Notes: generated by a model not told the origin, from the letters alone. 64,000 bases of DNA from Acidobacteriota bacterium (GCA_021789895.1 JAJYIU010000002.1:93805-157804); one strand, 5' to 3'; counted from the first letter of the stretch, positions 1 through 51,332 are shown. A program made the numbers and translations.

Positions 1-189
1 CCAAAGATCCATGCCCCCCATCACCGGCCGAAATTCCCGCTGCATGCGGGAATAAGGGCCGATTTGCTTGGGCAAGGCAGCTAGTTCCAGGCAATGCTGC
101 AGGCCGGGATGGGCGGACGGCACGACCCGCGCCGGCCAGACGGCCAGGGCTCCGGCAATCACCGCGAGCAGCGCCAGTTTCACTTTCAT
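1..189 (-). CDS. EpsI-like exosortase-associated protein, N-terminal 63 codons (gene continues beyond window start)
   Basis: Not in the ORF track because there is no stop in the window. The minus-strand ATG at 189-187 overlaps the exosortase stop (ATGA at 186-189). My translation is MKVKLALLAVIAGALAVWPARVVPSAHPGLQHCLELAALPKQIGPYSRMQREF..., an N-terminal hydrophobic anchor followed by an LP.QIG motif. The gene lies directly downstream of an exosortase, as in EpsH/EpsI pairs. Confidence 0.4.
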   Translation of the reverse strand, partial: MKVKLALLAVIAGALAVWPARVVPSAHPGLQHCLELAALPKQIGPYSRMQREFRPVMGGMDLW

Positions 190-1052
190 GGCGCGCCTCG
201 CGCGAGCCGGGAAGCCGCGCCGGCGCTCTTATCAACCGGTTGGGACCGCAGCAAGACCAGCCACAATCCGGTCGCGCCCAAAAAAAATAACAACCCTCCC
301 CAGGCGTGGTCCGCGACGCTCTCATAACCCGAGAGCGCGGGCCAATGTCCCGCCCACAGGTGAAATATCACCAATCCGCTCAGGCGCAGGGCATTGATGA
401 GATAGGCCAGCAGCACACCTGCCAGGGTGAAGGCGGCCAGGCGTAGCCGGCGCAGGCCGCGCCAATAAGCCGTGATCAGGCACAAGTAGAACATGGTGAC
501 CGCGCTGCGCAGGCCTTCGCATTGGCCGGCCAGGTACATGCTTTGATGATGGGCGAAGCGGAGGCTGAAGCCGTACCGTACGGGTTGCATGCCCAGCAGG
601 CTGGCGAAGGCCTGGGCCAGCGCCACGGCCCATAGCTGCAGCCGGGTATCGAACATCGAAGTCAAAAACATTGGCACGGGGTTCAAAAATAACAGCAATC
701 CCAAGCCGAACCAGGCGCGGCGCCAGTCGTGCCAGCCGCGCAGCCAGACCACGGCGCCGCTGGCGGCAGTCCAGATCAGCACGCCGGAAGGCAAGCGCAG
801 CCAGCGGGCGCCGGCCAGTGCCGCCAGCAGCGCCGCCAGTCCCCAGAGGCTGCCGCGCCCCGGCGCGGTCCCTTTCCAGGCGCGCCACAGCAGCGCCAGG
901 CTGGCCAGGGGCAGCAAGATCCCGATCGAGCGCAACCCGCTGCTGGTCCAGCGCCACCACAGATAGGCCCACTGCGAGCGCAGGCCGAATCCCAGCACCA
1001 ACCCGCCGAGCAGCATGGCTAAGCCCCACTCGATCCGGCTGGATTTCACCAT
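186..1052 (-). CDS. exosortase (EpsH/Xrt family) polytopic membrane transpeptidase
   Basis: ORF 186..1070 starts at TTG; the first ATG is at 1052. It is a polytopic membrane protein with an exosortase-like Cys motif (YLAGQCEGLRSAVTMF), an N..R motif (INALRLSGLV) and a late His (VADHAWGGLLFF). It sits next to a Wzc-like kinase and an EpsI-like ORF. Confidence 0.7.
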   Translation of the reverse strand: MVKSSRIEWGLAMLLGGLVLGFGLRSQWAYLWWRWTSSGLRSIGILLPLASLALLWRAWKGTAPGRGSLWGLAALLAALAGARWLRLPSGVLIWTAASGAVVWLRGWHDWRRAWFGLGLLLFLNPVPMFLTSMFDTRLQLWAVALAQAFASLLGMQPVRYGFSLRFAHHQSMYLAGQCEGLRSAVTMFYLCLITAYWRGLRRLRLAAFTLAGVLLAYLINALRLSGLVIFHLWAGHWPALSGYESVADHAWGGLLFFLGATGLWLVLLRSQPVDKSAGAASRLARGAP

Positions 1053-1066
1053 GCCGGCCGCAGGCT

Positions 1067-3886
1067 TCAAACGTGCTCCTCGGTGGCGTCCTCGCGGGAA
1101 TAAGCGTAATAACCGCGGTCGTAATGGCTGTAATACGGGCTCATGCCCTGCACCACCTGATTCAACACGACGCCAATCACGTTGGCGCGCACGCGGCGCA
1201 GTTGCTGCAACGTGGCCCGAACCTGCTCGCGCTTGGTCTTGCCCGCCAGCACCACCATCATCACCATGTCCACCAGGCTGTCCACCAGCAGCGTCTCGGA
1301 GAAACCCAACAGCGGCGGCGTGTCAATGAAGATGACCTGGTATTCCTTCTTCAACTGCTCCAATAACGGCGACAAGCCGGTATGCAGCAGTTGGGAGGGA
1401 TTGGGAATGCGCCCGCCGGAGGGCAGCACCCACAGATTGTTGAAGGCGGTGGGCAGAATGCATTCCTGGGTCTCGGCGACGCCGCGCAGGATATCGCTGA
1501 CCCCTTGGCGATTGGCAACGTCCAGCAGGCGGTGCATCTGCGGCCGGCGCAATTCCGCGTCGAGCAGCAGGGTCTTGACCCCGTGCAGCGACATCGCAAT
1601 CGCCAAATGGGCCAGAATCGTGGACTTGCCTTCGCCCGGGGTCGAGCTGGTAATCGTAAACGTGCGCGCCTCGACCGCTCCCGGCGAGAGCATCAACGCG
1701 GTGCGCAGGCTCAACACGGCTTCTTCGAAGGCCGAGGGTGCGGGCGCCGAAGCTTCGTCCCCGCCGGAAAATGGCTTGCGCACGGTAATCGCTTCGTAAG
1801 ACAGCGGCAGCGAGCCGAGGAAGTTCGCCCCCATGTGGGTCACGTCCTCGGGCGTCTTCAAGCTGCGGTCCAGGTAGCCGATCCCGATCGCCAGCATGCA
1901 TCCGCCGAGCAGCGACATCAGGAAGGCGAGCATCACTTCCCGGCGCACATTGGGATACACCGGCGCCGGATTCGGCGTGGCGGGATTGACGACGCGCAGC
2001 ATCTCGCCGTGGAAGCTGGCTGTCAGATTGGCGGCGTCGAATTGCTGTTGCAGCGCGTTATACAGATCCTGATTGTTTTTTTCCTCCTGCTTCAACAGGT
2101 TGTAGTCGAGCGCGTTCGAGTTGAAATTTGCCTGTTGGATCTGGCCGGACTGCAACGCCCTGCGGAGCAGGGTTTCCTGGTCGAGCGCTTTTTGATATAG
2201 GGTCTGGATCTGCGCGGTGGCTTCGTCGCGCATGCGGCGCAGTTGCTGGTTGGCCACCGTCATCCGCTGCTGGGCCTGGATGTACGCGGGATTTGCCGGC
2301 CCATCGTGCAGCTTGATCGCCTCGAAAGCGGCTTGCGCGGTTTGCTGTTGCGTCAGCGCCGCCGCCAGTTCCTGCCCGATCGTGGATTGCGCAATCGAGG
2401 TGGTCAGCAGCGCGCTCAGGCTGTTGCCCTGCACCGCGTTGCGATCGGCCTCATAGCGGAAGCGCTCCGCTTGTATCGTGCCCAGTTCATTGTTGATCTG
2501 CAGCATCCGCTGCTGCATCAGCTTGTCCTGATCATCGGGGTTGAGCAGGGCCTTCCGGTGCTGGTAATCGAGCAATTTCTGCTGGCTTCGCTCCAGCTTG
2601 GCTTTCAACTCCCCCAACTGCTGCCGCATCCAGTCGTTCGACCGGTTCACCGCGCGCAGGCGGGTCTGGAACTCATGCTCGATCAGCCCTTGCGCCATCG
2701 CATTGGCAATGTCGGCAGCCGCGGCCGGATTGCCGGCGACGGCGTTGATTTGAAAATTGCGGGTGTTGGGGACCGCGCTTACCGAAATCGCCCCGCTCAC
2801 CAGCCCCGCCAGTTCATCCTGGCTGAGCGGCTTGCCGGCGGGATTGAGCGCCCGGTCGCGATCCAGCTTGCCGACGCGTATGGAATCGTTCACTACCGAA
2901 GGCGTGACCACATCGCTCATGATCGTGGCCATCAGCGTTTGTAGATTGTCCAGATAATCGCCGGAATACCCCGAGTTGGTCAGGCCGTTGTTGCCGGCCA
3001 GCGAGGCCGAAATGCGGACCGTCGCCGTGCTGCCGTATTCCTTGGGAATGCGCCGCATGTGAATCCCGACCAGCACCGTGATCACCACCGCCATCGCCAG
3101 CACTTTGATCCAGTGACGCCGAATCTGCTGCCCGTAGAAGGCCAGCGGCAGTTCGCGGCGCCCGCCCTCGGCGCCTTCCATTACGTTTTCATATAAGCCG
3201 CCGGGCAGCGCCAGCCCGGAACCGGGCCAGCCGGCCGAAACCATCCCCGCGCCGGGCGCGCCCAGCATCGGGTTGTACGGCAGCGCCGCGCTCGCGGCGG
3301 AAGCTGCGCCCGCCGGCGCGATCCATCCGAACGGGTGCGCGGCGTTGCCCGGCGCAGCCGCGGTTGGCATGACAAAGGCCGGCATGGCGGCGGCCTCGGC
3401 ATGGCGTTCCGAACTGCCGCCGGCCGCCGGTTCCGCCTTGGCGTTGACAATCAACTTTCTCGCCGCCGCCGGCGTCACTCCACTTTCTAGCGCCGGGGCA
3501 GTGGAGACGGCACTGGCGGCGGCCGCTTCCGCGAGCGACGGACTCGGCTCCGCCTTGCGCTCCACCAGGTGCATGCCCGCTAAAAAAGTTTCATACTCTT
3601 GCGGCTGCGGCTCCTCGGCCAGATGCTTGAGTACCGGACGCTGGCTGTACAACGATCCGCGATCCCGGTCACGGCGCACCGGCAGAATCCCATTGGCCGC
3701 CAAAAAGCGCCCCACAATCGCCGCCTGTTCCCGCAGGCTGCGGTCATGCAGGTATTCGTGCCAGGCACGCTGCCGGCTGAGTTGTGGAATCAGCTCGCCG
3801 GGAGAAAATTCCTCTACTCCCCGAGCCGACAAAACCTCTGTGATCTCTTGCGCCAGTTGATGCCGGCTTATAGGCTGTGAAGACAT
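1067..3886 (-). CDS. polysaccharide co-polymerase / BY-tyrosine autokinase (Wzc/EpsG/GumC-like) with a long N-terminal extension
   Basis: 939 aa. Has a Wzz-type TM-periplasmic coiled-coil-TM region and a C-terminal P-loop kinase domain (ITSSTPGEGKSTILAHLA Walker A; LLDAELRRP; VIFIDTPP). GGAG Shine-Dalgarno sequence upstream of the ATG at 3886. Confidence 0.85.
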   Translation of the reverse strand: MSSQPISRHQLAQEITEVLSARGVEEFSPGELIPQLSRQRAWHEYLHDRSLREQAAIVGRFLAANGILPVRRDRDRGSLYSQRPVLKHLAEEPQPQEYETFLAGMHLVERKAEPSPSLAEAAAASAVSTAPALESGVTPAAARKLIVNAKAEPAAGGSSERHAEAAAMPAFVMPTAAAPGNAAHPFGWIAPAGAASAASAALPYNPMLGAPGAGMVSAGWPGSGLALPGGLYENVMEGAEGGRRELPLAFYGQQIRRHWIKVLAMAVVITVLVGIHMRRIPKEYGSTATVRISASLAGNNGLTNSGYSGDYLDNLQTLMATIMSDVVTPSVVNDSIRVGKLDRDRALNPAGKPLSQDELAGLVSGAISVSAVPNTRNFQINAVAGNPAAAADIANAMAQGLIEHEFQTRLRAVNRSNDWMRQQLGELKAKLERSQQKLLDYQHRKALLNPDDQDKLMQQRMLQINNELGTIQAERFRYEADRNAVQGNSLSALLTTSIAQSTIGQELAAALTQQQTAQAAFEAIKLHDGPANPAYIQAQQRMTVANQQLRRMRDEATAQIQTLYQKALDQETLLRRALQSGQIQQANFNSNALDYNLLKQEEKNNQDLYNALQQQFDAANLTASFHGEMLRVVNPATPNPAPVYPNVRREVMLAFLMSLLGGCMLAIGIGYLDRSLKTPEDVTHMGANFLGSLPLSYEAITVRKPFSGGDEASAPAPSAFEEAVLSLRTALMLSPGAVEARTFTITSSTPGEGKSTILAHLAIAMSLHGVKTLLLDAELRRPQMHRLLDVANRQGVSDILRGVAETQECILPTAFNNLWVLPSGGRIPNPSQLLHTGLSPLLEQLKKEYQVIFIDTPPLLGFSETLLVDSLVDMVMMVVLAGKTKREQVRATLQQLRRVRANVIGVVLNQVVQGMSPYYSHYDRGYYAYSREDATEEHV

Positions 3887-3998
3887 GAGAATTCCTCTCC
3901 CCGCACATCTCCTCTAGCGGTGGGGAGAGATATGTAACCCATCCTAAAGTATGGCCCTGAATTTTTTATTTTTAGCAGAAATGACGGGGGGTGTCAAG

Positions 3999-5390
3999 TT
4001 AATGAACCCCCTCGGTATCCGAACGCCGGGGGATTATCGGGGCGGCGGCAGTCCCGCTTAGCAGGCCTGCGAGCAGTAGTATGGCTGGAATATGTAAATT
4101 AAATTGCACTAAAGACGTGAGCAATACGCTGGCGATTCCCATCGCCGCCATCCAGCGCAATTTTTCGCCCCAGCGGCTCGCGTGTGACAGTGACGTCAAC
4201 CGGCTGGCAAACAATCCCAAACCGAGCAGCGCAAGCAGTGAGCCGATGAGGCCAGTTTCCGCCAGCCACTGTAGCCAGTCATCGTGTGCGTATTCAATCA
4301 CTGCATTGAGATACAGGTGATTATAGCGGTAATAAACCGGTTGCCAAGTTCCCAGGCCCCAACCGGTCCACGGGTGTTGCCGCCACAGGGCCAGGGTGCT
4401 ATGGTCCAGCGCAATCCGCTGTTGCGTCGAAGCTTGCGACTGCAGATGCATCACCCGCAGGGTCTGCGGCGCCAGGCCGCTGAAACTGACTATGACGAAC
4501 AACAACAGGCAGAACCCCGCCACCAGCCAGGGGGATTTGCCGCTGCTGCTTGCGGCTCCCGGCGCCCGGGAACCGGCGGCGCCCGAAGCGTCAGGTTTGC
4601 GCCGGCGCCAACGTTGCACCAGCCAGAGCGTCCAGATCGCTTCCACGATAAGCACCAGCAGCCCGCTCAGGCTGCGGGACAAGACTACGTCGGCCACCCC
4701 GACGGCAGGGATCAGCGCCCAGAGCAGGGCCCGATCCGGCCGTGAGCGCGCATGCCAGGCTTGCAGCACACTGCCCGGTAAAAGCATATCCATGCAGGCG
4801 GCGAAGTTGTCCCGGTTGACAAATGGCCCGAAGGGTTTGGCCAGCAAATAATGGAAATGCCAGTAGATGCCGTTGCTGCCGCTTCCCCATTCAACCAACC
4901 CCAGCCAGGCCAGCGCGCCGCATAAGATCGCCAGGCGCCGGGACATCCATACGTTATCCACCCGGGCCTGATAGTTTTGGCTGACCAGAAAATAGATGGC
5001 TGCCGCGCCCAGGCCGTGCAGCAGCGCGGTCAGCGTGCGGCCGGGCACGGGGGAAATCCACAGCCATTGAATGGTGATCCAGGCCAGCACAGCCAAAATC
5101 GGAAGCAGCAAGGGATCCGGCCGCAGCCGCTGTCGGCCGCGCGACAATTGCACCGCCCATAGCAGCAACCCTATATCCAGCAGTGCGTAAGCCGGGATAA
5201 AAACCCAGAAATAAACCCCTCCGAAGGCGAATACCGACCACGCTGCCGCGCCGAATGCCAGATAAAGCAAAAACCGCGGCGTGCTGAAATTCCAACGCCA
5301 GTTCTCGAGCCGGTGCTTCCAGGCCGCCAGGCGCGATGGGCGGGCTGCGCCCGCGGGCTTGGCGGTGGCATTGGGAGCTTGTATGCCCAT
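3999..5390 (-). CDS. O-antigen ligase / Wzy_C family membrane protein (putative EPS polymerase or ligase)
   Basis: Multi-TM protein with the Wzy_C-type motif YAHDDWLQWLAETGLIGSLL. I place the start at the internal ATG (MGIQAPN...), which overlaps the upstream gene's stop as TAATG at 5388-5392. The 5391-5663 extension in the ORF track is Arg/Gly-rich and overlaps the upstream CDS. Confidence 0.75.
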   Translation of the reverse strand: MGIQAPNATAKPAGAARPSRLAAWKHRLENWRWNFSTPRFLLYLAFGAAAWSVFAFGGVYFWVFIPAYALLDIGLLLWAVQLSRGRQRLRPDPLLLPILAVLAWITIQWLWISPVPGRTLTALLHGLGAAAIYFLVSQNYQARVDNVWMSRRLAILCGALAWLGLVEWGSGSNGIYWHFHYLLAKPFGPFVNRDNFAACMDMLLPGSVLQAWHARSRPDRALLWALIPAVGVADVVLSRSLSGLLVLIVEAIWTLWLVQRWRRRKPDASGAAGSRAPGAASSSGKSPWLVAGFCLLLFVIVSFSGLAPQTLRVMHLQSQASTQQRIALDHSTLALWRQHPWTGWGLGTWQPVYYRYNHLYLNAVIEYAHDDWLQWLAETGLIGSLLALLGLGLFASRLTSLSHASRWGEKLRWMAAMGIASVLLTSLVQFNLHIPAILLLAGLLSGTAAAPIIPRRSDTEGVH

Positions 5391-6790
5391 TACGGATGCC
5401 TCGCGGCGCGAACAGGGTTCGATAAATTGGCCGGCCCGGCGGTTGGACTGCCCTCCGCCGGCGCGCGCACCGAAATGCGGCGCACCCAGAATCTTCCATC
5501 CAACCGGTTGGCGCCGAAAGGTCTTCGGTACGAAAGCAGGAGTTGATAAGCCGCGATTGGCGGCGATACGGCCGGCGGCGCGCTCGCCCGGCGCGGATTC
5601 TGCGCCGGCATGACCGCCGCGGATGCCGCCGGCAAGGTAAACTCCGCGTGCGCGGATTGCCATTCAGCCCCGGTTTTGAGCGGCAGCGTGAACAGCGGCG
5701 CGCTCCCCTGCCGCAGTTGCAGAAAAAAGCCGCCGCACTCGGCCGGATCACGGCGCGATTGGCAGCGCGTTTCCGCGGCCACTTTCAGGGTTGCTTCCGG
5801 CGGCGCAAACAGCCATTGGCGGAGCAGGCTCACGCGCCGGTCGCCTTCCATCCCGTTCATATCCACCACCAGCCGGCCGCCGTCGGGTGGTTCCTCCAGG
5901 CTCAATTGCGTCGCGGCGTCTCCGATGGGAAACCAGCTCAGCCATCGGACGTTATTGGCGCTGTATCGTTGCAGGCTGCCGGCAGGAAACCCGGACGCGC
6001 TGATCAATTCACCTCGCGCTTGCTTCCGCTCGCCTTGATACAGCCCGGTCTCGATCCCCCGGTTCCAGATCATCAACGCTTCGGCGGGATCCGACTTCAA
6101 ATCGCGCTGTAACGTCGCATCCAGTGTGCTGCGGACGAACGCTTGGCGTTGCGGCGTCAGCCCATGGCTCAGCAGAAATAAGCGGGCGAGGGCGGTGTGC
6201 AGCTCGCTGTCCGGTTGGAATTGCTGAACCATGCGCACGTAACCCGCCGCTGCCGCCAGCGAACGCGCCGGCAGCCGTGCCCACACCACGCGCGCCGGAG
6301 TATCGGGTATCGTCAGGGCGCGCGCCAGCATGGGATCGTAATAGCTGTCCGCGGCCAACCGGCAGCTCTGCTGAAATTCCCGCCAAAACTGCGCGCGGTC
6401 GCCGCCGGCGAGCCAGAGATTCGCGCGCAGCCAATGCAGCCTGAAACTGTAAGGAAAATCCTTGACGGCGCGGTCTGCCAGCCGGGTGGCGCGCGCTCCC
6501 TCGCCCGCCCCCAGTTCGGCGGTAATCAGGTCCATGCGGCTCAGCGGGTTTTCCGGATTCAGGCGGATCGAGCGCTGTAAAATCGGAATCGCCTGCTGCG
6601 GGTGCGTACCCAGCACCTGTTCGCCCCACACCCGCCAATAAGTCGCATTGTCCCGGCGCCAAAAAGCGGCCTGGGGAAATTCGGCGCGCTGTGCGTAGCG
6701 GTCCGCCCGCCAGGTGGCGAACCCGAGGCTGAGCGCAAACAGTCCGATCACGCCTGGCGCCAGCGCCGGCGCCCAACGCCGCCAAAACAT
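5390..6790 (-). CDS. hypothetical membrane-anchored protein: helical TPR-like region plus beta-rich C-terminal domain
   Basis: 466 aa with an N-terminal TM helix (APALAPGVIGLFALSLGFA). A helical repeat-like middle region (QAIPILQRSIRLNPENPLSRMDL...) is followed by a C-terminal ~170 aa without recognisable motifs. Translationally coupled to the Wzy-like gene. Confidence 0.6.
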   Translation of the reverse strand: MFWRRWAPALAPGVIGLFALSLGFATWRADRYAQRAEFPQAAFWRRDNATYWRVWGEQVLGTHPQQAIPILQRSIRLNPENPLSRMDLITAELGAGEGARATRLADRAVKDFPYSFRLHWLRANLWLAGGDRAQFWREFQQSCRLAADSYYDPMLARALTIPDTPARVVWARLPARSLAAAAGYVRMVQQFQPDSELHTALARLFLLSHGLTPQRQAFVRSTLDATLQRDLKSDPAEALMIWNRGIETGLYQGERKQARGELISASGFPAGSLQRYSANNVRWLSWFPIGDAATQLSLEEPPDGGRLVVDMNGMEGDRRVSLLRQWLFAPPEATLKVAAETRCQSRRDPAECGGFFLQLRQGSAPLFTLPLKTGAEWQSAHAEFTLPAASAAVMPAQNPRRASAPPAVSPPIAAYQLLLSYRRPFGANRLDGRFWVRRISVRAPAEGSPTAGPANLSNPVRAARHP

Positions 6791-6951
6791 TGCCTGCCTC
6801 CCTGATTTGCAAATGCCGCCGCGCCTTGCCGCATGCTATGCAAAATCCGGACGGCTTGCAAGTCGGGCGTCGGCAGTCCGGGTTCCGGCGCTGTTCCCGG
6901 CGTTCTGGTTCGAATCCGCGGCTTGCAGCATAATCTCTGCTACGGACCTTC

Positions 6952-8565
6952 ATGGCTCCCGAAGATTTCAGCTTGAGTGCCTCCGCCGCGGCCGCCGGCG
7001 GCGAGGAGCTGGCTCCCGCCACCCGTCATCGCGGCGCGCGCTCGATCGTGACCTTCGCCACCGGGCTCATTTACACCGTCACCACCGTTTTGCTCGGCTT
7101 CATCGCCACTCCCCTCCTGGTCCGCTGGCTGGGCGATGCCCGCTATGGCGCATACCGCGCTGCGCTGGATTGGTTTGGCCATTTCTCGCTGTTGGATTTT
7201 GGGCTTAGCGGCGCCCTGCTGCCCATTCTGGCCGCCGCCCTCGCCCGCGAAGCTCATCGCCTGCCTCAGGTACTGCGCACGGCCATCTATGCCTACGCCC
7301 GCATGGGCGTGTTCATGCTCCTGGCCGGCACGCCGTTGGCCCTGCTGCTGCCTCACCTGATCCATGTGCCGCCGGCTATGCGCGGCGATCTCATCGCCGC
7401 CGCCTTCGTCGGCTTAGCCGGTTTTCTGCTCGCGCCCTTCACGCCGTTCAATAAATTGCTGGAAACGGCGCAGTCCGGTTACTGGGTCAATCTGGTGCTG
7501 TTGCTGCAGGCCTGCCTCAGCATCGGCCTGGCGCTGGGCTTGGCCTGGCTGGGCTGGGGAATCACCGGTCAATTCCTGGCGGTGCTGGCGGGCATGCTGC
7601 TCGCTTCCCTGCTTTATGCGGTGCGCGCGCGCCGCCTGCTCCCGTCCGGGAGTTGGGGCCGCTTCTTCGGCCGCCCCGATCCCCAAATCCTGCGCCAATT
7701 GCGCCGGCTGCAGTGGCCCGCCTGGATTCTAACCTTGTCCGGGCGGGTCCAGTTGTTTTCCGACAACATCATCGTCGCCGGCCTGCTTTCCCCCGCCGCC
7801 GTCGTTCCGTTTTTCATCACCCAAAAACTGGCCGCCTTGGGCCAGCGTGAGGCGCAGCGGCTCTCGCTGGTCAGTTGGCCGGCGTTGGCGGAAATGCATG
7901 CCCGCGGCGAAATGGATTTGTTCCGCCGCCGCTTGTTCGAACTGACCCGCCTGACCAGCGTCACCGGCTGTCTGTTGATGCTGCCGGTGGTGATTTACAA
8001 CCGCGCCTTCATTACCGCCTGGATGGGCGTCCGCTATTACGCTGGCATGCCGCTTACCTTCCTGGCCGCGGCCAACGCCATCTTGTTGGCCTGCCAGAGC
8101 GTCTGGTCGTATTGCATCGAGAGCACCGGCCAGGTGCGCGCCCTCGTTCCCATCGGCGTCGCCCAGGGCGCGTTCAACCTGGCCGCCAGCCTGTTGCTGA
8201 CCTGGCGATTGGGCCTGGTGGGCCCGGTGCTGGCCACGACCTTAGCCTATCTTGGCTTTACCATCTGGTATCATCCGCTGATGCTTCGCCGTCATTTTGC
8301 AGTCGTCCCTTGGCGCATGCATTGGGCGATGCTCCAGCCCATTCTGCTGGCGTTCGGCTTAGGCCTGGCGAGCTGGCAATGGGTCCGGTTCAGCCCCCCT
8401 TCCGGATTGCTGTCGGCTCTTTGGCAGATGGCGATCGTAGCAGCCGTTTATGGCCTGCTGGCCTGGGTGCTGGCGTTTTCTCCGGCCATGCGCCGCGACC
8501 AATCCCGCTGGCTGGCCACCATCGCTGCGAGCCTCCGCCGCTTGGGCAGGTCACGGCCGCAATGA
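6952..8565 (+). CDS. polysaccharide flippase (Wzx / MOP superfamily)
   Basis: 537 aa, about 12-14 hydrophobic helices, typical oligosaccharide-flippase composition. Divergent from the Wzy-like operon inside the EPS locus. Confidence 0.7.
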   Translation: MAPEDFSLSASAAAAGGEELAPATRHRGARSIVTFATGLIYTVTTVLLGFIATPLLVRWLGDARYGAYRAALDWFGHFSLLDFGLSGALLPILAAALAREAHRLPQVLRTAIYAYARMGVFMLLAGTPLALLLPHLIHVPPAMRGDLIAAAFVGLAGFLLAPFTPFNKLLETAQSGYWVNLVLLLQACLSIGLALGLAWLGWGITGQFLAVLAGMLLASLLYAVRARRLLPSGSWGRFFGRPDPQILRQLRRLQWPAWILTLSGRVQLFSDNIIVAGLLSPAAVVPFFITQKLAALGQREAQRLSLVSWPALAEMHARGEMDLFRRRLFELTRLTSVTGCLLMLPVVIYNRAFITAWMGVRYYAGMPLTFLAAANAILLACQSVWSYCIESTGQVRALVPIGVAQGAFNLAASLLLTWRLGLVGPVLATTLAYLGFTIWYHPLMLRRHFAVVPWRMHWAMLQPILLAFGLGLASWQWVRFSPPSGLLSALWQMAIVAAVYGLLAWVLAFSPAMRRDQSRWLATIAASLRRLGRSRPQ

Positions 8566-8656
8566 ACCCGCACCGCAGTGGCTGTTCCCGCCCGCGGCCG
8601 GTGACGGCCGGTGCCAGCCCGCCGTACCTCGGCCATCGCCGGCTTGCGTTTTTCGG

Positions 8657-9697
8657 ATGGGCGTTATGACGGAAGAATCGGCGCCCGCCCCCGCCGCCAG
8701 GTCCAGCCCCCGCCGGTTAACCGGGATGAACCCTTTGGCCTGGCTCCGCCGCCAGCCCGCTTATCTGGACTTTCGTTGGGCGACGCGGGAAGGCCTGGCC
8801 CGCGCCTGGCGGCGCCATGCCTGCGAGCGCCGCATCCTCGACACCCCTCCGCTCTGGACCGCTGCGGCCTCCCGCCGCATCGAAGTGCGCGCCCTGACCT
8901 GGCGGCGCGATTGTCTCGATCTGATCTGGGCCTTGAAGAGCTTTTATTTCTTCGCCGGGGTGGATTATCCCCTGGTCATCCACGACGGCGGCTTGTTGCC
9001 GCGGCAGTTGCAGCTCCTGCGGCGGCATTTCCCCAATGCCGGCTTCGTCACCGCCGGCGAGGCCGAACTGCGGGTGCCGGCCGAGCTCGAACGCCGCGGC
9101 CTCCGGCGCTGCCGGGCTTATCGCCGTAGCAATGTCGCCACCCGCAAGCTGTTCGACTTCTTCCTCTTCTCTGCCGCCGAGTATGTGATCTCGATTGATT
9201 CCGATATCGTGTTCTTCCGCCGCCCCGATCGGTTGTGCATCCCGCCGCAGGGCGATTTCAAGAATCGCTATAACAAAGATGCGGGCTACTGGTACTCGAT
9301 GAGCCTCGATGAGCTGGAGGCCAACTTTGGCATTCGCCCTCCCGAGCGCATCAACTCCGGCCTCTCGCTGGTTCGCCGCGCTTCGATGGATTTCGAAGCG
9401 ATGGAGCGCTGGCTGGCCCATCCCAAATTGTTCGCCGATCAATGGGTCACGGAACAGACCTTGCACGCGCTCTGCGCCGGCCTCTACGGCTTCGAATTCC
9501 TGCCGGATACTTACTGTGTCAGCACCAGCCCGGGCTTGTCTCCGGAGATGGTTTGCAAGCACTATCCCGGCTTCTTCCGCTATCTGCAATATGAAGAAGG
9601 CATGGCGCGCCTGATCGAAACCGGCTTTCTGCAGGCGCTGCGCCGCCAAACTTCTTTTGCGCCGCCGGCGAGCCCCGAAACGCTCGGCCCTGCTTAA
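8657..9697 (+). CDS. putative GT-A-fold glycosyltransferase (DxD motif)
   Basis: ORF 8450..9697 overlaps the flippase, so I use the ATG at 8657 (alternatives at 8666 and 8726). It has a DSD motif in a hydrophobic context (YVISIDSDIVFFRRP) and no TM helices. The family assignment is not certain. Confidence 0.5.
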   Translation: MGVMTEESAPAPAARSSPRRLTGMNPLAWLRRQPAYLDFRWATREGLARAWRRHACERRILDTPPLWTAAASRRIEVRALTWRRDCLDLIWALKSFYFFAGVDYPLVIHDGGLLPRQLQLLRRHFPNAGFVTAGEAELRVPAELERRGLRRCRAYRRSNVATRKLFDFFLFSAAEYVISIDSDIVFFRRPDRLCIPPQGDFKNRYNKDAGYWYSMSLDELEANFGIRPPERINSGLSLVRRASMDFEAMERWLAHPKLFADQWVTEQTLHALCAGLYGFEFLPDTYCVSTSPGLSPEMVCKHYPGFFRYLQYEEGMARLIETGFLQALRRQTSFAPPASPETLGPA

Positions 9698-10551
9698 AAT
9701 TCCAAACGATAGTCTGGCTTGCCGGGATCGTTGGGCCAATCCAATCCCGGAATCGGATAGCTCTCTCGCGCGCGGCTTTCCTGCTGCCCGTGCATGAGGT
9801 CCTTGTTTAGAAAAGTAACTTCCAGCACGCTCGGCGTCGCCGAGCCCGGAATCAACCGGGCCCAGTTGTTGCCGTGAATGTGCGTAACTTCAAACTTGTC
9901 CCGCAACTGGTTCACCATCCCGGCGAAATTCGGCCATAGTATGTCCAGCTCGTGAAACTCCACCGCCATTCCACTCACATACTCTGCAAATGGCTCCAGG
10001 TCGGGCAAGATCCGGAACTCCGATTGCTCGATATCCATTTTGATGAAAACGGAATTTTTCGCGATCCCGTCTTTTTGAAGCATCGAAAAGATATCGCCCA
10101 AGGTAATGAATCCCGGGCCGTTCTCGTTGGAGACTCCTTGTTGAAAACATCGCACATTCTCGCCGGCGCAAAACGAGCGGAAGTCGAAATACAAGCGGGC
10201 GGCTTTTTTAACCTCCCGCAGCCGCTGCCATGCCGCTCGCCAACGCCCCAAGAGCAGCAACGTCAAAAATCTCAGGCTGAGGATTTCATTCAGGGCGTTG
10301 CTCAGCCGCCCACGGAAAATATCCCGGGATACGGAATGATCGAAACAGAGTATTTTGATTTCAGGCTTTCGCTTCCGGAAATCCGCCTCAAACGACCAAT
10401 CGTTGCCCAAGCCCAGGCTGATCAGATATCGCGAGTGAAGAATCGCTGCCTGGTTGATGACATACCCCCCGTCGGCATCCCTCCCGAGTCGCACCAGATC
10501 GTTCAAGCATCTCGGCCGGTAGCTGGCAAGGGACGGCGGCATGATCTTCAT
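9694..10551 (-). CDS. FkbM-family SAM-dependent methyltransferase
   Basis: FkbM signature FIKMDIEQSEFRILPDL ... GMAVEFHELD. The ORF begins with TTG at 10602; ATG candidates are at 10551 and 10542. Its stop codon overlaps the convergent GT stop (TTAA at 9694-9697). GC is visibly lower than in the neighbouring genes. Confidence 0.75.
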   Translation of the reverse strand: MKIMPPSLASYRPRCLNDLVRLGRDADGGYVINQAAILHSRYLISLGLGNDWSFEADFRKRKPEIKILCFDHSVSRDIFRGRLSNALNEILSLRFLTLLLLGRWRAAWQRLREVKKAARLYFDFRSFCAGENVRCFQQGVSNENGPGFITLGDIFSMLQKDGIAKNSVFIKMDIEQSEFRILPDLEPFAEYVSGMAVEFHELDILWPNFAGMVNQLRDKFEVTHIHGNNWARLIPGSATPSVLEVTFLNKDLMHGQQESRARESYPIPGLDWPNDPGKPDYRLEF

Positions 10552-10767
10552 CTGGGGATATCGCACCCCGTATTTTCCTGTTTCCGTCCAAGCTCGCTGC
10601 AAAGGCTCCGGGGCGCCCTGGTTCTTTGGAAGCTCTCCCTGGATTGCAGCAAGAAACGTACGCCAGGCGATTCATAATGCCATAAATTCTATGCCGGTGA
10701 TTCGACCGCCACGATTCGTTTCCATGCATTCCTCTCGGAATTGAATTTGCATCCCTAAACGTTGAGA

Positions 10768-11916: not shown

Positions 11917-12252
11917 CGTTTCTGCCCGTGCAGGTCCCCGCCTTCGGCTGCCGCCCGCTCCACCGCGACGATGGCCGGCGCCGGTTTCCATGCAGCCCAG
12001 CTCGCGGCATGCCCGGAAACATAGTGTATGCGAACCGCCCCTCCATGCGCCGCCGCCATGGTCTGGGCCGGAAACGCATTCTATGCCTTCGCTCCCGCCA
12101 TTCCGGGTTGATCCGGCCATGGTTTAACGTGAATAATTGAACTCTGCGCCTGAGTATCCGGGCCGTAAGTTCAAGCCGTATCCGGATTTTCCGCTCCCCA
12201 ACGCTGAGCGCAGCGTGTATAGTTTAGCTAACACTAGTGAGTGCATCCCCCC

Positions 12253-14214
12253 ATGAGTGATAACATCAATGGGCGTAAACCGGCCGAAGCGATGGAATTA
12301 CAGGAATTTAGCGCCTTTTTCGATTACGCCCCCGAGCCCTGCTGTATCGCCACTCCGGAAGGCATCCTCCTGCGCGTGAATGCAACCCTCGCCCAGGTGC
12401 TGGGCTCGCGCAATGAGGACTTGGCCGGTCATTCCCTGTTCACCTATTTGCACGCGGACGATCGCGCCCTGGGACAGCAGTGGCTGGAAACCTTATCGGC
12501 GGATAAACTGGCGACCCAAAAACTGCGTCTGAAGCGCCAGGACGGCAATTATTGCGGCTTGCTTTGCAAGGCCGCCTTTTCCGTTTCGGCGCGCCGCATA
12601 TTTATCATCGGGCGCGAATTGCCCGAACCCAACGGCACGCTCGAGGCTCTCGCCAACACCCATACCCTCGAAGAACTTGGCGCCTTAGCCGGCCGGCTGG
12701 CGCACGACTTCAATAATCTGCTTACCCGGATTCATGGTTATAGCTGCCTGTTGCTCGATCTGCTGGACGAGGAAGATCCCAACCGGCGCTATATGGAACG
12801 CATCCAGGAGGCGGGCGAGCAGGCGGTCGGCATCACCAACCAGTTGCTCGAAACCAGCCGCCGCTATGCCGGCGTGCTCGCGTTTGCCGACCTGATCGAG
12901 CCCTCGCCCGCGGCCGGCAGCGCGGCGGCGCCCGCGCCCGCCGCGCAACCCGAGCTCGCGGCCGGTTCGGATCCCTCCGCGCCCACCATCCTGGTGGTCG
13001 AAGACGATGCGGAAATTCGGGACTTGATGCGCATTGTCCTGCAGGGCGAAGGTTATAATCTGCTGCTCGCCGCCGATGGCGCCGAGGGCTTGGAAATCGG
13101 CCGCCGCTATGCCGGAAAAATCAATCTGCTGCTCACCGATGTCGTCATGCCGCGCATGGATGGCTTGAATCTGGCAAAGGAACTGCAGCGCCTGCGCCCG
13201 GAATTGGCCGTGCTGTTTGTTTCCGGCTACGCGGAAAGCAAGTTGGTCAGCGACGCCTTGCAAAAGGTGGATACCGTTTTCCTGCCCAAGCCATTTGGGC
13301 CGCAGACCTTGCTGGAACCGGTCCACAAGCTGCTCGCCCTGGCGCCCGCTGCCGCCGCGCCTCCGCCTTGGCTGGCTGCCGCGGCGGCGTCGGTGCCTGC
13401 TCCCGGCGCCGCCGCCCTCGCCGCCGATGCGCCGCACTCATCGTCGTTTCCAATGGAATTGCAGCCTGAGCCGGCCGCCGCGGATGCCAACTCTATCCCG
13501 ATCGTTCCGGAAGCGGATCCGGAAGCCTCGCCGCCAACTTGGTCCGGCGACAGTGAAACCATCTTCAGCTATATCGCCGATACCGATCTGCCTGCCCGGC
13601 GGCGTTGGTTGGCGCCGGGACTGGCCTTGGCGGTGCTCTTAGTGGTGGGGTTGGCACTCGCCTGGCTGTGGCGCGACCGTTGGCTGCATTCACCGGCCCC
13701 CGCCCGCCAAAGCTCTCTTCCTCATCCGGCGCATTCAGTCCCGCCCTCGCCGGCGGGTCAGGCTCCGCCCCCGGTCAAGCCCCAACCCTCCGCGTCCCCA
13801 ACCGCCGCGCCCGCCCCCTATGCTGCCGTTCCCGCCGCGCACACCACTCCGGCCTCGCCGGCGGCGCAACCGGGTGGCGCCGGCCTGGCGCAAATCGATA
13901 CCCCCAGGCTTGTGCAGCAAGGCGGCACGCTGAGCATCCTGTTGCCGGTGACCGGCCCCCTGCCCCGCGCCGACAGCCATCTCCTGCGCCACCCCCGGCG
14001 CTGGTATGTGGATTTTCAGCCGGCGATCAAATTGTCCGCCGCTTCCCGCTGGCCGGGTGCGGATTGGGTCCACGACTTGCGCCTGGCGCAGTTCGCCAAC
14101 CAGCCCGGGCATCAGGTGGTGCGGCTGGTGCTGGATTTGCCTGCCCAGGCCCCGCGCCTGCGGCTGCAAAGCCGGCCGCATGGCTTTCTGATCGTCGCTT
14201 CTCCGCCTTCCTGA
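12253..14214 (+). CDS. PAS - HisKA(DHp) - receiver - TM - Pro-rich linker - AMIN domain protein (no HATPase_c domain)
   Basis: Domains in order: PAS-like N-terminus; H-box LAHDFNNLLTRIHGY; Ala/Pro linker; REC (ILVVEDD ... LLLTDVVMP ... LPKPF); TM helix LAPGLALAVLLVVGLALAWLW; Pro-rich stretch; C-terminal AMIN-like motif (RRWYVDFQP ... VHDLRLAQFANQPGHQVVRLVLDLP). GTG at 12241 or ATG at 12253 could be the start. Confidence 0.8.
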   Translation: MSDNINGRKPAEAMELQEFSAFFDYAPEPCCIATPEGILLRVNATLAQVLGSRNEDLAGHSLFTYLHADDRALGQQWLETLSADKLATQKLRLKRQDGNYCGLLCKAAFSVSARRIFIIGRELPEPNGTLEALANTHTLEELGALAGRLAHDFNNLLTRIHGYSCLLLDLLDEEDPNRRYMERIQEAGEQAVGITNQLLETSRRYAGVLAFADLIEPSPAAGSAAAPAPAAQPELAAGSDPSAPTILVVEDDAEIRDLMRIVLQGEGYNLLLAADGAEGLEIGRRYAGKINLLLTDVVMPRMDGLNLAKELQRLRPELAVLFVSGYAESKLVSDALQKVDTVFLPKPFGPQTLLEPVHKLLALAPAAAAPPPWLAAAAASVPAPGAAALAADAPHSSSFPMELQPEPAAADANSIPIVPEADPEASPPTWSGDSETIFSYIADTDLPARRRWLAPGLALAVLLVVGLALAWLWRDRWLHSPAPARQSSLPHPAHSVPPSPAGQAPPPVKPQPSASPTAAPAPYAAVPAAHTTPASPAAQPGGAGLAQIDTPRLVQQGGTLSILLPVTGPLPRADSHLLRHPRRWYVDFQPAIKLSAASRWPGADWVHDLRLAQFANQPGHQVVRLVLDLPAQAPRLRLQSRPHGFLIVASPPS

Positions 14215-14235: not shown

Positions 14236-15198
14236 CTAGCGGTGCGCGACGTAATACAGCAGCAGCATCAGCAGCGCCGGCAATGCCGCCAGCAAGGCAT
14301 AGAAAGCCAGCCGCCGGGCTTGCGGATTGCGCCGGCGCGCGGCCGGAGTCGAGCTGCGCTCGCGCGGCGTTACCGATTCCGGATGCTCCAGATCGAGCAT
14401 CATCTCCGCCGCCGAGGCGTACCGCTGCGCCGGTTGCCGCTCCAAGGCCCGGTACAGGATCTCTTCCAGCCGCGGATCCATCGCCGGATCGGCCTCGTGC
14501 GGCGGGATCGGATCGTTCAATAAGCGATCGTTCATGATCGCGAAGGGGTTGCCGCCGCGGAACGGCAGCTTGCCGGTGAGCATCTCGTAGAGCATGACCC
14601 CGAGCGCATAGAGATCGCTGCGGGCGTCGCCGCGCTGGCCTTTGACCTGCTCGGGCGAGATGTAATCCGGCGTTCCCATGGTTTTCGACAATTTGGCAAA
14701 GGTCAGCCGCCGGGCGCCGGCGTTGGCGGCCAGGCCGAAATCCAGAATTTTGACCTCGTCCCGGTCGTCGATCAGGATGTTTTCGGGCTTCAGATCGCGG
14801 TGCGCGACGCCCTGTTCATGCATGTGGCCGAGCGCGGCGGCAATCCGCCGCGCCAGCGCCAGCGCGCGCATTTGCGGCAGCGGCGCTTCGCGGGCGATGA
14901 TTTGCCGCAGCGGCCGGCCCTCCCCCCATTCCATCACCAGGTAAACATTGCCGGGCCGGATCGGCGCCAGCACCTTGACGATGCCGGGATGGTTCAGGCG
15001 CCGGCCCACCTCCGCTTCCCGCTGAAAGCGCTCGAAAAATACCGGATCGCACTCGATTTCCGCGTGTGGCACCTTGATCGCGACCTTCCGCCCGGTGGCT
15101 TCCTCGACGGCGCGATAGATGCACGCCATCCCGCTGCGCGCGATCATCTGCTCGATGCGATAACCGTCCAGTTGTTCGTTAGGTTGATACTCGCGCAT
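14236..15198 (-). CDS. Hanks-type Ser/Thr protein kinase, C-terminally membrane-anchored
   Basis: Motifs: VAIKV (catalytic Lys), HRDLKPENILID, DFGLA, GTPDYISPE. Single C-terminal TM helix (LAFYALLAALPALLMLLLYYV). Confidence 0.9.
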   Translation of the reverse strand: MREYQPNEQLDGYRIEQMIARSGMACIYRAVEEATGRKVAIKVPHAEIECDPVFFERFQREAEVGRRLNHPGIVKVLAPIRPGNVYLVMEWGEGRPLRQIIAREAPLPQMRALALARRIAAALGHMHEQGVAHRDLKPENILIDDRDEVKILDFGLAANAGARRLTFAKLSKTMGTPDYISPEQVKGQRGDARSDLYALGVMLYEMLTGKLPFRGGNPFAIMNDRLLNDPIPPHEADPAMDPRLEEILYRALERQPAQRYASAAEMMLDLEHPESVTPRERSSTPAARRRNPQARRLAFYALLAALPALLMLLLYYVAHR

Positions 15199-32264: not shown

Positions 32265-32417
32265 ACCCTCCGCTCGTTGTCCTCTCCGCTTGCAGGCCCT
32301 ATCCCGCCGCTCCCGGCTCATGCGGAACGCGGAGCCTCAGCCGCAGCGGCTCAATTTGACCTTCGAGGGTTCGTGCGGACGGGGGGAGAGCTGATGATTC
32401 CACCAAGGCAAAAACCC

Positions 32418-32472
32418 TCGTAGGAGTCATCTGCCCCGGAATGGGGCGGTTAGGGGTGAACTCCAACACCCG
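32418..32472 (-). promoter_or_regulatory. fluoride riboswitch (crcB RNA motif) aptamer
   Basis: Minus-strand RNA GGUGUUGGAGUUCACCCCUAACCGCCCCAUUCCGGGGCAGAUGACUCCUAC. Elements: P1 GGUG/CACC; pseudoknot GGAG/CUCC; conserved AACCGCC; P3 CCCC-AUUCC-GGGG; GAUGACUCCUAC. It matches the B. cereus crcB aptamer from memory (GGCGAUGGUGUUCGCCAUAAACGCUGCUUAGCUAAUGACUCCUAC). Confidence 0.85.
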
Positions 32473-32648
32473 TGAACAATTTCATTATTTTCTCGCCCCC
32501 GCCTTAAAGTCAATGGATCGCAGCTCGCTTACCGCCTCGCTCCTTGATTCGTGCAGGACCGTGAGGTTGAGCCTGCGTTCAAAGGCATCGAAATCGCAGT
32601 CGCGATGCCGCGGCAAGTGCACTGCTTGCAGGCAAAGGGTTGCGAAGC

Positions 32649-48547: not shown

Positions 48548-48617
48548 TCCCTCGCGTCTCCGACTTTACGGCGCTGCGCTTGCTATGTTTCCGCCCAGGC
48601 CCCTGCTTCGCTAACAT

Positions 48618-51287: not shown

Positions 51288-51332
51288 CTCTATTCGCTTC
51301 TCCGATGCCGTCTTCCCACCTGACCACTGCAT

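Follow-up and report, generated by a model that had tools for sequence, protein, structure and literature searches.

A histidine-kinase-like protein without a kinase catalytic domain, joined to a receiver, a membrane helix and an AMIN domain in an Acidobacteriota bacterium

What function is left for a histidine-kinase-like protein that has no ATPase domain, and why is it joined, behind a receiver and a membrane helix, to an AMIN domain? This question is raised by a gene of an Acidobacteriota bacterium (GCA_021789895.1), which lies at positions 12253 to 14214 of a stretch of 64,000 nucleotides (JAJYIU010000002.1:93805-157804), called the window in the following. Residue numbers refer to the encoded 653-aa protein, nucleotide coordinates to the 64-kb window. 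An original prediction, made from the sequence alone, had given the open reading frame (ORF) exactly, since the ATG at 12253 and the stop codon at 14212–14214 match; starting from an alternative GTG at 12241, the protein would be four residues longer. The sequence motifs quoted there were all found as well, i.e., LAHDFNNLL with H151, VVEDD, LLLTDVVMP with D296, LPKPF with K346 and RRWYVDFQP, together with VVRLVLDLP. The protein is identical to the 653-aa entry P0001 of the protein collection and is arranged in the order PAS, DHp, Ala/Pro linker, receiver (REC), disordered linker, transmembrane (TM) helix, Pro-rich spacer and AMIN domain. The parts are known singly, and their combination PAS-DHp-REC-TM-AMIN is real, extremely rare and apparently undescribed.

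The absence of the ATPase domain, on which the whole question depends, held up. In a Pfam scan of the full-length protein PAS, HisKA and Response_reg were the only families recognized, and HATPase_c (PF02518) had no match even at E ≤ 10, neither in residues 190–250 nor elsewhere. In an alignment with CckA-like hybrid kinases, a clean gap of ~170 aa lies exactly at the catalytic (CA) domain of these kinases. It opens just past the first CA strand of the relatives, which corresponds to GVLAFADLIE (residues 207–216) in the window protein. The linker that stands in place of the CA domain consists of 41% Ala and 22% Pro; its length had been estimated at ~35 aa and was measured as ~27–38 aa. A hidden Bergerat fold has left no sign, and there is no room for it, in the full-length AlphaFold2 (AF2) model, in which the confidence score pLDDT falls below 50 in the segments 218–227, 380–447 and 480–542. 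Furthermore, profile and tblastn searches with the CA domains of 10 relatives as queries did not rise above noise in any frame, neither in the window nor in the relatives' loci, and therefore no split CA gene is present nearby. Thus, of what makes a functional HisKA kinase, the H-box histidine of the DHp is present and the HATPase_c domain with its N, G1, F and G2 boxes is absent, and the protein is predicted to be unable to autophosphorylate.

How this state arose can be read from the relatives. A search of 5.8 billion protein clusters (90% identity), queried first with the complete protein and second with a PAS-DHp-REC core profile, found only five clusters without HATPase_c, namely the window protein, P0002 (625 aa), P0003 (373 aa) as well as P0135 and P0136 (377 aa each). 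They are 43–63% identical overall, and the score drops from 565 to 270 bits at the first CA-containing CckA-like kinase. The deletion boundaries are identical in all five CA-less proteins, which implies one ancestral deletion. Outside this family, all homologs have the architecture PAS-HisKA-HATPase-REC, and many carry the name CckA in their source. Also the best NCBIfam matches of the window protein are CckA models, aligned in two separate stretches (DHp and REC); the equivalogs NF046020 and NF046026 reach 138.2 and 111.1 bits, below their cut-off of 1000. With the CckA-type hybrid kinases the protein shares the order PAS-DHp-REC, the HDFNNLL H-box and the REC sequence. It differs in that it is devoid of the CA domain, adds a C-terminal TM helix and AMIN domain, and should not be able to act as a kinase. 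As judged from these sequences, the window protein descends from CckA-type hybrid kinases, and an ancestral in-frame deletion removed the whole CA domain while all phospho-residues were kept.

The CA-less family is genuine and very rare. The deletion junction can be described by a DNA pattern, encoding E-x-S-R-x-[YH]-A-G-x-L-x-[FY]-x-D-L-I, which recognizes the window and each of the five family loci but gives no match in the other 82 loci fetched. The same pattern had no match in 241 million metagenome records, which reflects true rarity and not a faulty pattern, because it matches all family loci. When the N-terminal 366 aa were used to search 185,579 species-representative genomes for orthologs, none was found; all matches were CA-containing hybrid kinases, in which ~230 query residues were spread over ~1.1–1.5 kb. 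Within the family, P0003, P0135 and P0136 end after REC and are soluble PAS-DHp-REC proteins. This leaves the window protein and P0002 as the only two membrane-tethered members in the databases searched.

What the deletion has left behind is a well-preserved cytoplasmic module. The PAS domain, the predicted sensor or input domain, is recognized by Pfam at 18–81 (24.8 bits, cut-off 22.6) and modeled by AF2 at ~20–125 with a pLDDT of ~95, and its Foldseek matches are PAS domains and PAS-histidine-kinase structures. The DHp domain is recognized as HisKA at 144–204 (E 2.6e-8, 34.2 bits, cut-off 26.9) and forms two helices in the model, 137–170 and 176–206. Its H-box LAHDFNNLL contains the phospho-acceptor H151 (nt 12703–12705) and an intact H-D-x-x-N phosphatase motif. 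The REC domain matches Response_reg at 246–356 (E 4.5e-21, 75.5 bits, cut-off 30.2) and is modeled at 245–363 with a pLDDT of ~96. It contains E250/D251/D252, D296 (nt 13138–13140), S324 and K346 (nt 13288–13290), and among solved structures the CckA receiver 6tne is closest to it in identity (38%, TMt 0.93).

The residues of this module are conserved in a manner that is informative about function. All 15 aligned sequences agree in H151, D152, N155, E250, D251, D296, S324 and K346, and D252 does not vary inside the CA-less family. Between the window protein and P0002, the identity amounts to 81% in the DHp and 82% in the REC domain, compared to 52% in PAS and 25–31% in the linkers. Because the phospho-residues are invariant, and DHp and REC are conserved far above the linkers, the phospho-chemistry appears to be under selection. 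This pattern is that of a working phosphotransfer module, and neither that of a decaying gene nor that of a pseudokinase such as PsmA.

Behind REC follows the part of the protein that was added to the CckA-type core. Here, the cytoplasmic disordered linker, which had been estimated at ~110 aa and measures ~86 aa, has pLDDT values of ~33–38 at 380–447 and is 25% identical to P0002. The predicted single TM helix was confirmed: the core 454–472 (Kyte-Doolittle 2.36), preceded by RRR, is the sole strongly hydrophobic segment, and AF2 models a helix at 450–478 with a pLDDT of 78–92. The spacer behind it (28% Pro, 25% Ala, pLDDT 33–39) is with ~67 aa likewise shorter than the ~90 aa given earlier. 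With one TM helix and cytoplasmic PAS, DHp and REC domains, the C-terminal domain is predicted to lie in the periplasm. An in-frame ATG is located at 13453 (codon M401), ~49 codons before the TM helix, and P0002 likewise has a Met a few dozen residues ahead of its TM helix; an internal start at M401 may produce a short TM-AMIN isoform beside the full-length protein.

For the C-terminal domain, the assignment as AMIN was borne out by transitive homology, profile search and fold. Pfam gave no AMIN match on the full-length protein, and for the isolated last 113 residues the sole family matched was AMIN (PF11741), with 11.9 bits (E 0.24) below the cut-off of 20.5. With the C-terminal sequence alone as query, phmmer found nothing among the PDB sequences. 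An exhaustive phmmer search against 1.84 billion representatives returned 15 proteins, of which the two best are 671-aa PilQ-type secretins (58 and 54% identity, E 2e-29 and 1e-22). Both have STN/N0, Secretin_N and Secretin domains, and the match lies at the N-terminal place where PilQ carries its AMIN domain. The aligned regions of the next eight proteins (E 2e-15 to 2e-4) are above the Pfam AMIN threshold. A profile of the domain matched PilQ from Myxococcus xanthus (3jc8, E 1.9e-16) and residues 19–108 of AmiC from Escherichia coli (4bin, E 1.9e-8) among the PDB sequences, which is partly expected as this profile (A2) includes canonical AMIN sequences. For the domain alone, AF2 predicts an all-beta structure (pLDDT 89.9), in keeping with the two-layer beta fold of AmiC and PilQ B2, and the top three Foldseek matches of this model are AmiC 4bin, PilQ 3jc8 and PilQ B2 from Neisseria meningitidis 4aqz (probability 1.00, TMq 0.58–0.68), with everything below at a probability of at most 0.15. 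Sequence and model thus both identify it as a divergent AMIN domain of the PilQ type.

The closest AMIN relative (58%) is the N-terminal domain of a PilQ which ends a pilM-to-pilQ cluster (L086, 3363–8016). This suggests, on the level of sequence, pilQ as the source from which the AMIN module was copied. A RodZ-like gene adjoins the same cluster. In M. xanthus, the AMIN domains of PilQ recognize septal and polar peptidoglycan (PMC10653833).

The second tethered member places this C-terminal module in a wider context. P0002 has a disordered linker, one TM helix and, where the window protein has AMIN, a domain of the OmpA family (PF00691, E 2.7e-23), whose motif TD...N-x-x-L-S-x-x-R-A is visible in the sequence. 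Two unrelated peptidoglycan-binding folds are therefore found at the same position of orthologs, and wall tethering as such, rather than one particular domain, seems to be the selected property. In a search with the REC-to-OmpA half of P0002, no other protein combining REC and OmpA was present among the top 120 matches, with a sensitivity limited by the word index. The same search returned P0345, a 540-aa PAS-HisKA-REC protein without a Pfam HATPase_c match. It was considered as a further CA-less member and not counted, as ~190 unassigned residues lie between HisKA and REC; these are probably a degenerate CA domain, which would be a different route to a kinase-dead hybrid.

The features of the gene and of its surroundings are listed in Table 1. 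The neighborhood had been described as an exopolysaccharide (EPS) locus, and the Pfam assignments agree. Five genes upstream (186..8565) are collinear between the window and L001, the locus of P0002, which makes P0002 a positional ortholog. Adjacency to an exosortase/EPS cluster is thus found for both tethered members, i.e., in two genomes only, and for none of the three soluble ones.

Table 1. Parts of the 653-aa protein and neighboring genes, in coordinates of the window; identities refer to L001, the locus of P0002.
Feature	Position (nt)	Strand	Basis
Whole gene, PAS-DHp-REC-TM-AMIN	12253..14214	+	ORF list; 653 aa; GC3 continuous
PAS domain, predicted cytoplasmic sensor/input (aa 18–125)	12304..12627	+	Pfam, AF2, Foldseek
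DHp (HisKA) helical hairpin (aa 137–206)	12661..12870	+	Pfam HisKA, AF2 model
Deletion junction GVLAFADLIE, remnant first CA strand (aa 207–216)	12871..12900	+	Alignment; family signature
Ala/Pro linker in place of CA (aa 217–243)	12901..12981	+	Alignment gap, composition
REC domain (aa 244–363)	12982..13341	+	Pfam Response_reg, residues, AF2
Cytoplasmic disordered Ala/Pro-rich linker (aa 364–449)	13342..13599	+	pLDDT, no Pfam match
Single TM helix (aa 450–478, core 454–472)	13600..13686	+	Kyte-Doolittle, AF2
Predicted periplasmic Pro/Ala-rich spacer (aa 479–545)	13687..13887	+	pLDDT, composition
AMIN domain, predicted periplasmic, PilQ type (aa 546–649)	13888..14199	+	Homology, profile, fold
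Exosortase EpsH	186–1070	-	Pfam; 69% identity to L001
Wzz/tyrosine-kinase-like protein	1067–3886	-	Pfam; 67% identity to L001
Wzy_C	3999–5663	-	Pfam; 53% identity to L001
TPR protein	5390–6790	-	Pfam; 53% identity to L001
Polysacc_synt flippase	6952–8565	+	Pfam; 67% identity to L001
Ser/Thr protein kinase	14236–15198	-	Pfam; convergent with the focal gene
PP2C phosphatase	15264–~16100	-	Pfam; convergent with the focal gene

For the Ser/Thr kinase and the PP2C phosphatase next to the gene the earlier description stood in one part only. Pfam confirms that both are present, and there is no counterpart of them beside the ortholog in L001, where an amino-acid permease sits. The pair was considered as a dedicated partner of the protein and set aside; it is probably none, and the pairing is lineage-specific. 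In tblastn searches of the loci L001, L004 and L085, the permease, the Ser/Thr kinase, the PP2C, the GT9 gene and two ORFs of the window without assignment had no match. These two ORFs, at 8450–9697 (+, 415 aa) and 9694–10602 (-, 302 aa), lie between the flippase and GT9 and have no Pfam match; in L001, a GT4 glycosyltransferase is found at that place and no counterpart of either. They may be novel genes of the EPS locus or spurious ORFs of a GC-rich sequence. The soluble P0003 and P0135, on the other hand, share a neighborhood of their own with a bactofilin, a 220-aa protein and a GH35 beta-galactosidase (L004, 5543–11122; L085, 1753–13287); in L085, the genes for RNase E/G, RodA and PBP2 are no more than 6 kb away from it. 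This hints that the soluble form, too, stands in a cell-shape or cell-wall context.

What, then, could such a protein do? It had been proposed that it acts as a relay, a phosphatase or a node phosphorylated in trans, localized by its AMIN domain, and we infer that this is the best reading. By a slight balance of probability, the protein would be a PAS-gated phosphate sink or relay, which derives from a CckA-type hybrid kinase, does not autophosphorylate and is held at the peptidoglycan. Here, D296 of REC would take the phosphoryl group from an unlinked donor, a kinase or phosphotransfer protein whose gene lies at another place in the genome. As a sink, the DHp dimer would hydrolyze the phosphorylated REC via H-D-x-x-N, which would represent the phosphatase half of a CckA-like bifunctional enzyme. 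As a relay, it would act like Spo0B and ChpT and use H151 to hand the phosphoryl group to a downstream regulator. The PAS domain would gate the activity of the DHp. Because long disordered linkers lie on both sides of the membrane, neither a HAMP domain nor a signaling helix is present, and three CA-less members have no membrane part at all, TM helix and AMIN are read as an anchor in the inner membrane and a tether to the peptidoglycan, which would not serve as signal input. The tether sites would probably be the septal or polar wall recognized by the AMIN domains of PilQ, where phosphate would be drained or passed on locally. The gene keeps its place at the edge of the exosortase/EPS cluster, which suggests production or export of exopolysaccharide as the output under control.

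Several precedents bear on the chemistry of this proposal. The phosphatase motif of HisKA proteins is said to have been studied by Willett and Kirby, and a phosphatase activity has reportedly been observed for the histidine kinase EnvZ without its kinase catalytic domain. The motif H-E/D-x-x-T/N is the phosphatase determinant of HisKA proteins (PMC12963549). For proteins with HisKA and no HATPase, roles as phospho-acceptor, in phosphotransfer or as phosphatase have been proposed (Galperin et al., 2018, PMC5847659).

A number of points weigh against the sink or relay at the wall. No phospho-donor or acceptor, i.e., no other histidine kinase, HPt protein or response regulator, is encoded in the 64-kb window or the 20-kb ortholog loci, and nothing distinguishes the sink from the relay. 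The phosphatase state of CckA reportedly involves a nucleotide- and c-di-GMP-bound CA domain, and by analogy the phosphatase behavior of CckA may not carry over to a DHp that lacks CA. The topology follows from domain logic rather than from the positive-inside rule, with nearly balanced charges flanking the helix (RRR before, R-D-R after). Further, box I of the R-x-x-x-acid motifs of AMIN is not recognizable in the window domain, and both peptidoglycan binding and a septal or polar location are extrapolations based on PilQ and AmiC. With only two tethered members, the selection for wall tethering is deduced from a single domain swap, and since EPS loci do not harbor the soluble paralogs, only two genomes support the link to EPS.

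Four other explanations have to be weighed against this proposal, the most basic being that there is nothing to explain. An assembly chimera, a frameshift fusion or a pseudogenized hybrid kinase could be suspected, since the exact window protein is known from one contig only, long spurious open frames are common in GC-rich genomes, and compensating frameshifts might hide in the low-complexity linkers. The evidence makes this very improbable. Identical CA deletion boundaries in five clusters from separate assemblies would not be expected of an artifact, nor would the layout of REC, linker, TM helix and periplasmic domain recur in P0002, for which the ENA, NCBI and Logan assemblies independently agree. 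The G+C content at third codon positions (GC3) is high in one frame, with 0.62–0.90 throughout including both low-complexity linkers, and the stop-free run of 182 codons from REC to AMIN has a chance probability of ~0.007 at the base composition of the window. Domain cores far better conserved than the linkers likewise do not fit a decaying gene, and the suspicion of two genes joined by a frameshift, raised along with the original prediction, is thereby countered. If the protein is real, it could be a pseudokinase that acts independently of phosphorylation, its DHp-REC core being a dimeric platform for protein contacts at membrane and wall and thereby a scaffold for the EPS or pilus machinery, like the polarisome protein PsmA of Streptomyces or DivL of Caulobacter. 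Loss of the CA domain is typical of pseudokinases, no partners are encoded nearby, and PsmA is a hybrid-kinase-like, polar protein with a Pro-rich disordered linker that works without phospho-sites (PMC12963549). PsmA, however, has lost its histidine and phosphatase motif, whereas here all phospho-residues are invariant among members that are only 43–63% identical; such residues are hard to explain in a scaffold without phosphotransfer, and we regard it as improbable.

A third possibility keeps the phospho-chemistry and reverses the direction of the signal, so that the AMIN or OmpA-type domain would report the state of the peptidoglycan to DHp and REC from outside. A bitopic protein with a periplasmic ligand-binding domain and a cytoplasmic signaling module does resemble the sensor kinases, and the orthologs carry two different peptidoglycan-binding domains at this place. 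Here, however, the TM helix is C-terminal to REC and flanked by ~86 and ~67 disordered residues (pLDDT 33–39), with no HAMP domain and no signaling helix, and the soluble family members work without the module. Conformational coupling is therefore implausible and the sensor as a whole even less probable than the scaffold, with mechanical or clustering-based signaling still conceivable. More serious, while still unlikely, is a role as partner of a full kinase. In this case H151 would be phosphorylated in trans, as in a split kinase, or a DHp heterodimer would block autophosphorylation of the partner in the manner of RetS and GacS, and AMIN would recruit or sequester the kinase at the wall. The DHp, the most conserved part (81%) with its intact H-box, would suit such a dimer, and related lineages encode CA-containing PAS-HisKA-HATPase-REC kinases closely related to the protein, numbering in the hundreds. 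The interface by which RetS acts on GacS is that of the DHp dimer (PMC8498467), and Hik36/Hik43, which regulate EPS and pili in Synechocystis, show that split kinases exist (PMC7656254). Yet no full kinase is encoded near the window gene or at any family locus, the gap from 565 to 270 bits leaves no obvious recent paralog as partner, and RetS keeps its CA domain. Hik36/Hik43 was also rejected as a close analog, as it is a split CheA and not a HisKA dimer. Thus, the sink or relay held at the wall is the reading that we retain.

In comparison to known systems, the protein falls between several classes. The class "HisKA, no HATPase" (in P2CS "possible incomplete histidine kinase") has the same sensor, HisKA histidine and missing ATPase domain, and the window protein belongs to it by these features; it is a descriptive class and not a homologous family. 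Its described members are mainly archaeal and end at HisKA, whereas the window protein is bacterial and continues with REC, an anchor and a predicted peptidoglycan-binding domain. To our knowledge, neither these proteins nor the CA-less family has been characterized. Spo0B of Bacillus and ChpT of Caulobacter possess a four-helix bundle of the DHp type, whose histidine moves the phosphoryl group between receivers without ATP. Both keep a degenerate CA-like domain and have no fused REC, PAS, TM or periplasmic domain; in the window protein the DHp is followed by 10 structured residues (207–216) and the disordered linker, and a CA-like domain of this kind is not present. The predicted membrane topology is that of MotB/OmpA-like proteins, FtsN/SPOR, ExeA/GspA and RodZ, which are single-pass N-in/C-out proteins with a flexible periplasmic spacer reaching to the wall. 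None of these bitopic wall-binding proteins is known to carry a two-component phosphotransfer module.

Also RetS from Pseudomonas aeruginosa is kinase-like without acting as a kinase, and modulates the phosphorelay of another kinase via DHp contacts and phosphatase or phosphate-siphoning activity (PMC8498467). It controls exopolysaccharide and biofilm, and in contrast to the window protein it retains CA, carries two REC domains in addition to an N-terminal periplasmic sensor, and lacks a peptidoglycan anchor. PsmA from Streptomyces likewise cannot autophosphorylate, has a long Pro-rich disordered linker and is localized at the pole (PMC12963549). Its degeneration is the opposite one, since a degenerate CA domain is kept, the histidine and phosphatase motif are lost, and it functions independently of phosphorylation and localizes via DivIVA instead of peptidoglycan. 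With PilQ and AmiC, the C-terminal domain shares fold and sequence family. Known AMIN domains are N-terminal modules of secreted or outer-membrane proteins such as murein hydrolases, secretins, TonB-dependent receptors and OEP (PMC2572700). In contrast to PilQ and AmiC, the AMIN domain of the window protein is C-terminal and predicted to be anchored in the inner membrane, and the bulk of the protein is a cytoplasmic phosphotransfer module. The original prediction had not recognized this architecture from elsewhere, which agrees with the founding AMIN survey, where only secreted and cell-surface architectures and no kinases or signaling proteins are given (PMC2572700). A full-text literature search for AMIN together with response regulator and histidine kinase found only unrelated papers. 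The BiofilmReg operon of Burkholderia was considered as a precedent and rejected, because LysM/FecR is located on a separate gene.

Regarding the regulation of the 653-aa gene, an Rfam scan of the window detected no leader RNA or riboswitch upstream of it, and sigma-70-like and terminator-like matches near its start are at chance level. The sole Rfam match in the window is a fluoride riboswitch (RF01734) at 32414–32479 (-), with 45 bits against a threshold of 34 (E 3e-9). Elsewhere, the window is rich in eukaryote-like signaling genes, including two Ser/Thr kinases fused to PD40/beta-propeller domains and an FHA-GAF-SpoIIE (PP2C-type) phosphatase, at 32649–35453 (-), 51999–53723 (-) and 53840–56689 (+). 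Furthermore, two tandem MacB_PCD/FtsX permease genes (888 and 904 aa) lie at 45881–51332 (-).

Two-component signaling is usually pictured as a freely diffusing kinase and regulator, and the spatial control that is known, for CckA, DivL, PleC/DivJ and PsmA, relies on cytoplasmic or membrane polarity scaffolds. A bolder version of the proposal, which we offer tentatively and hold to be doubtful as a whole, would have the PilQ-type AMIN domain, or the OmpA-type domain in the sister species, pin the CA-less DHp-REC dimer at septal or polar sites by the type IV pilus secretin. It would be the first two-component module placed by its own binding to peptidoglycan. The phosphorelay would be drained or relayed only there, and pilus sites would be coupled to the exosortase-dependent export of EPS.

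The family is tiny, with five clusters of which two are tethered, and comes from uncultured organisms; the finding is a well-defined curiosity and a generator of hypotheses rather than a general mechanism. Within these bounds, the exact deletion of CA with all phospho-residues kept makes it a clean test case for the class "HisKA, no HATPase," which could show what role the DHp plays alone in vivo, and the swap of AMIN and OmpA represents a natural domain-swap experiment. If the proposed reading is true, a new principle would be at hand, in which a kinase-less phosphotransfer or phosphatase module is fixed in place by its own wall-binding domain.

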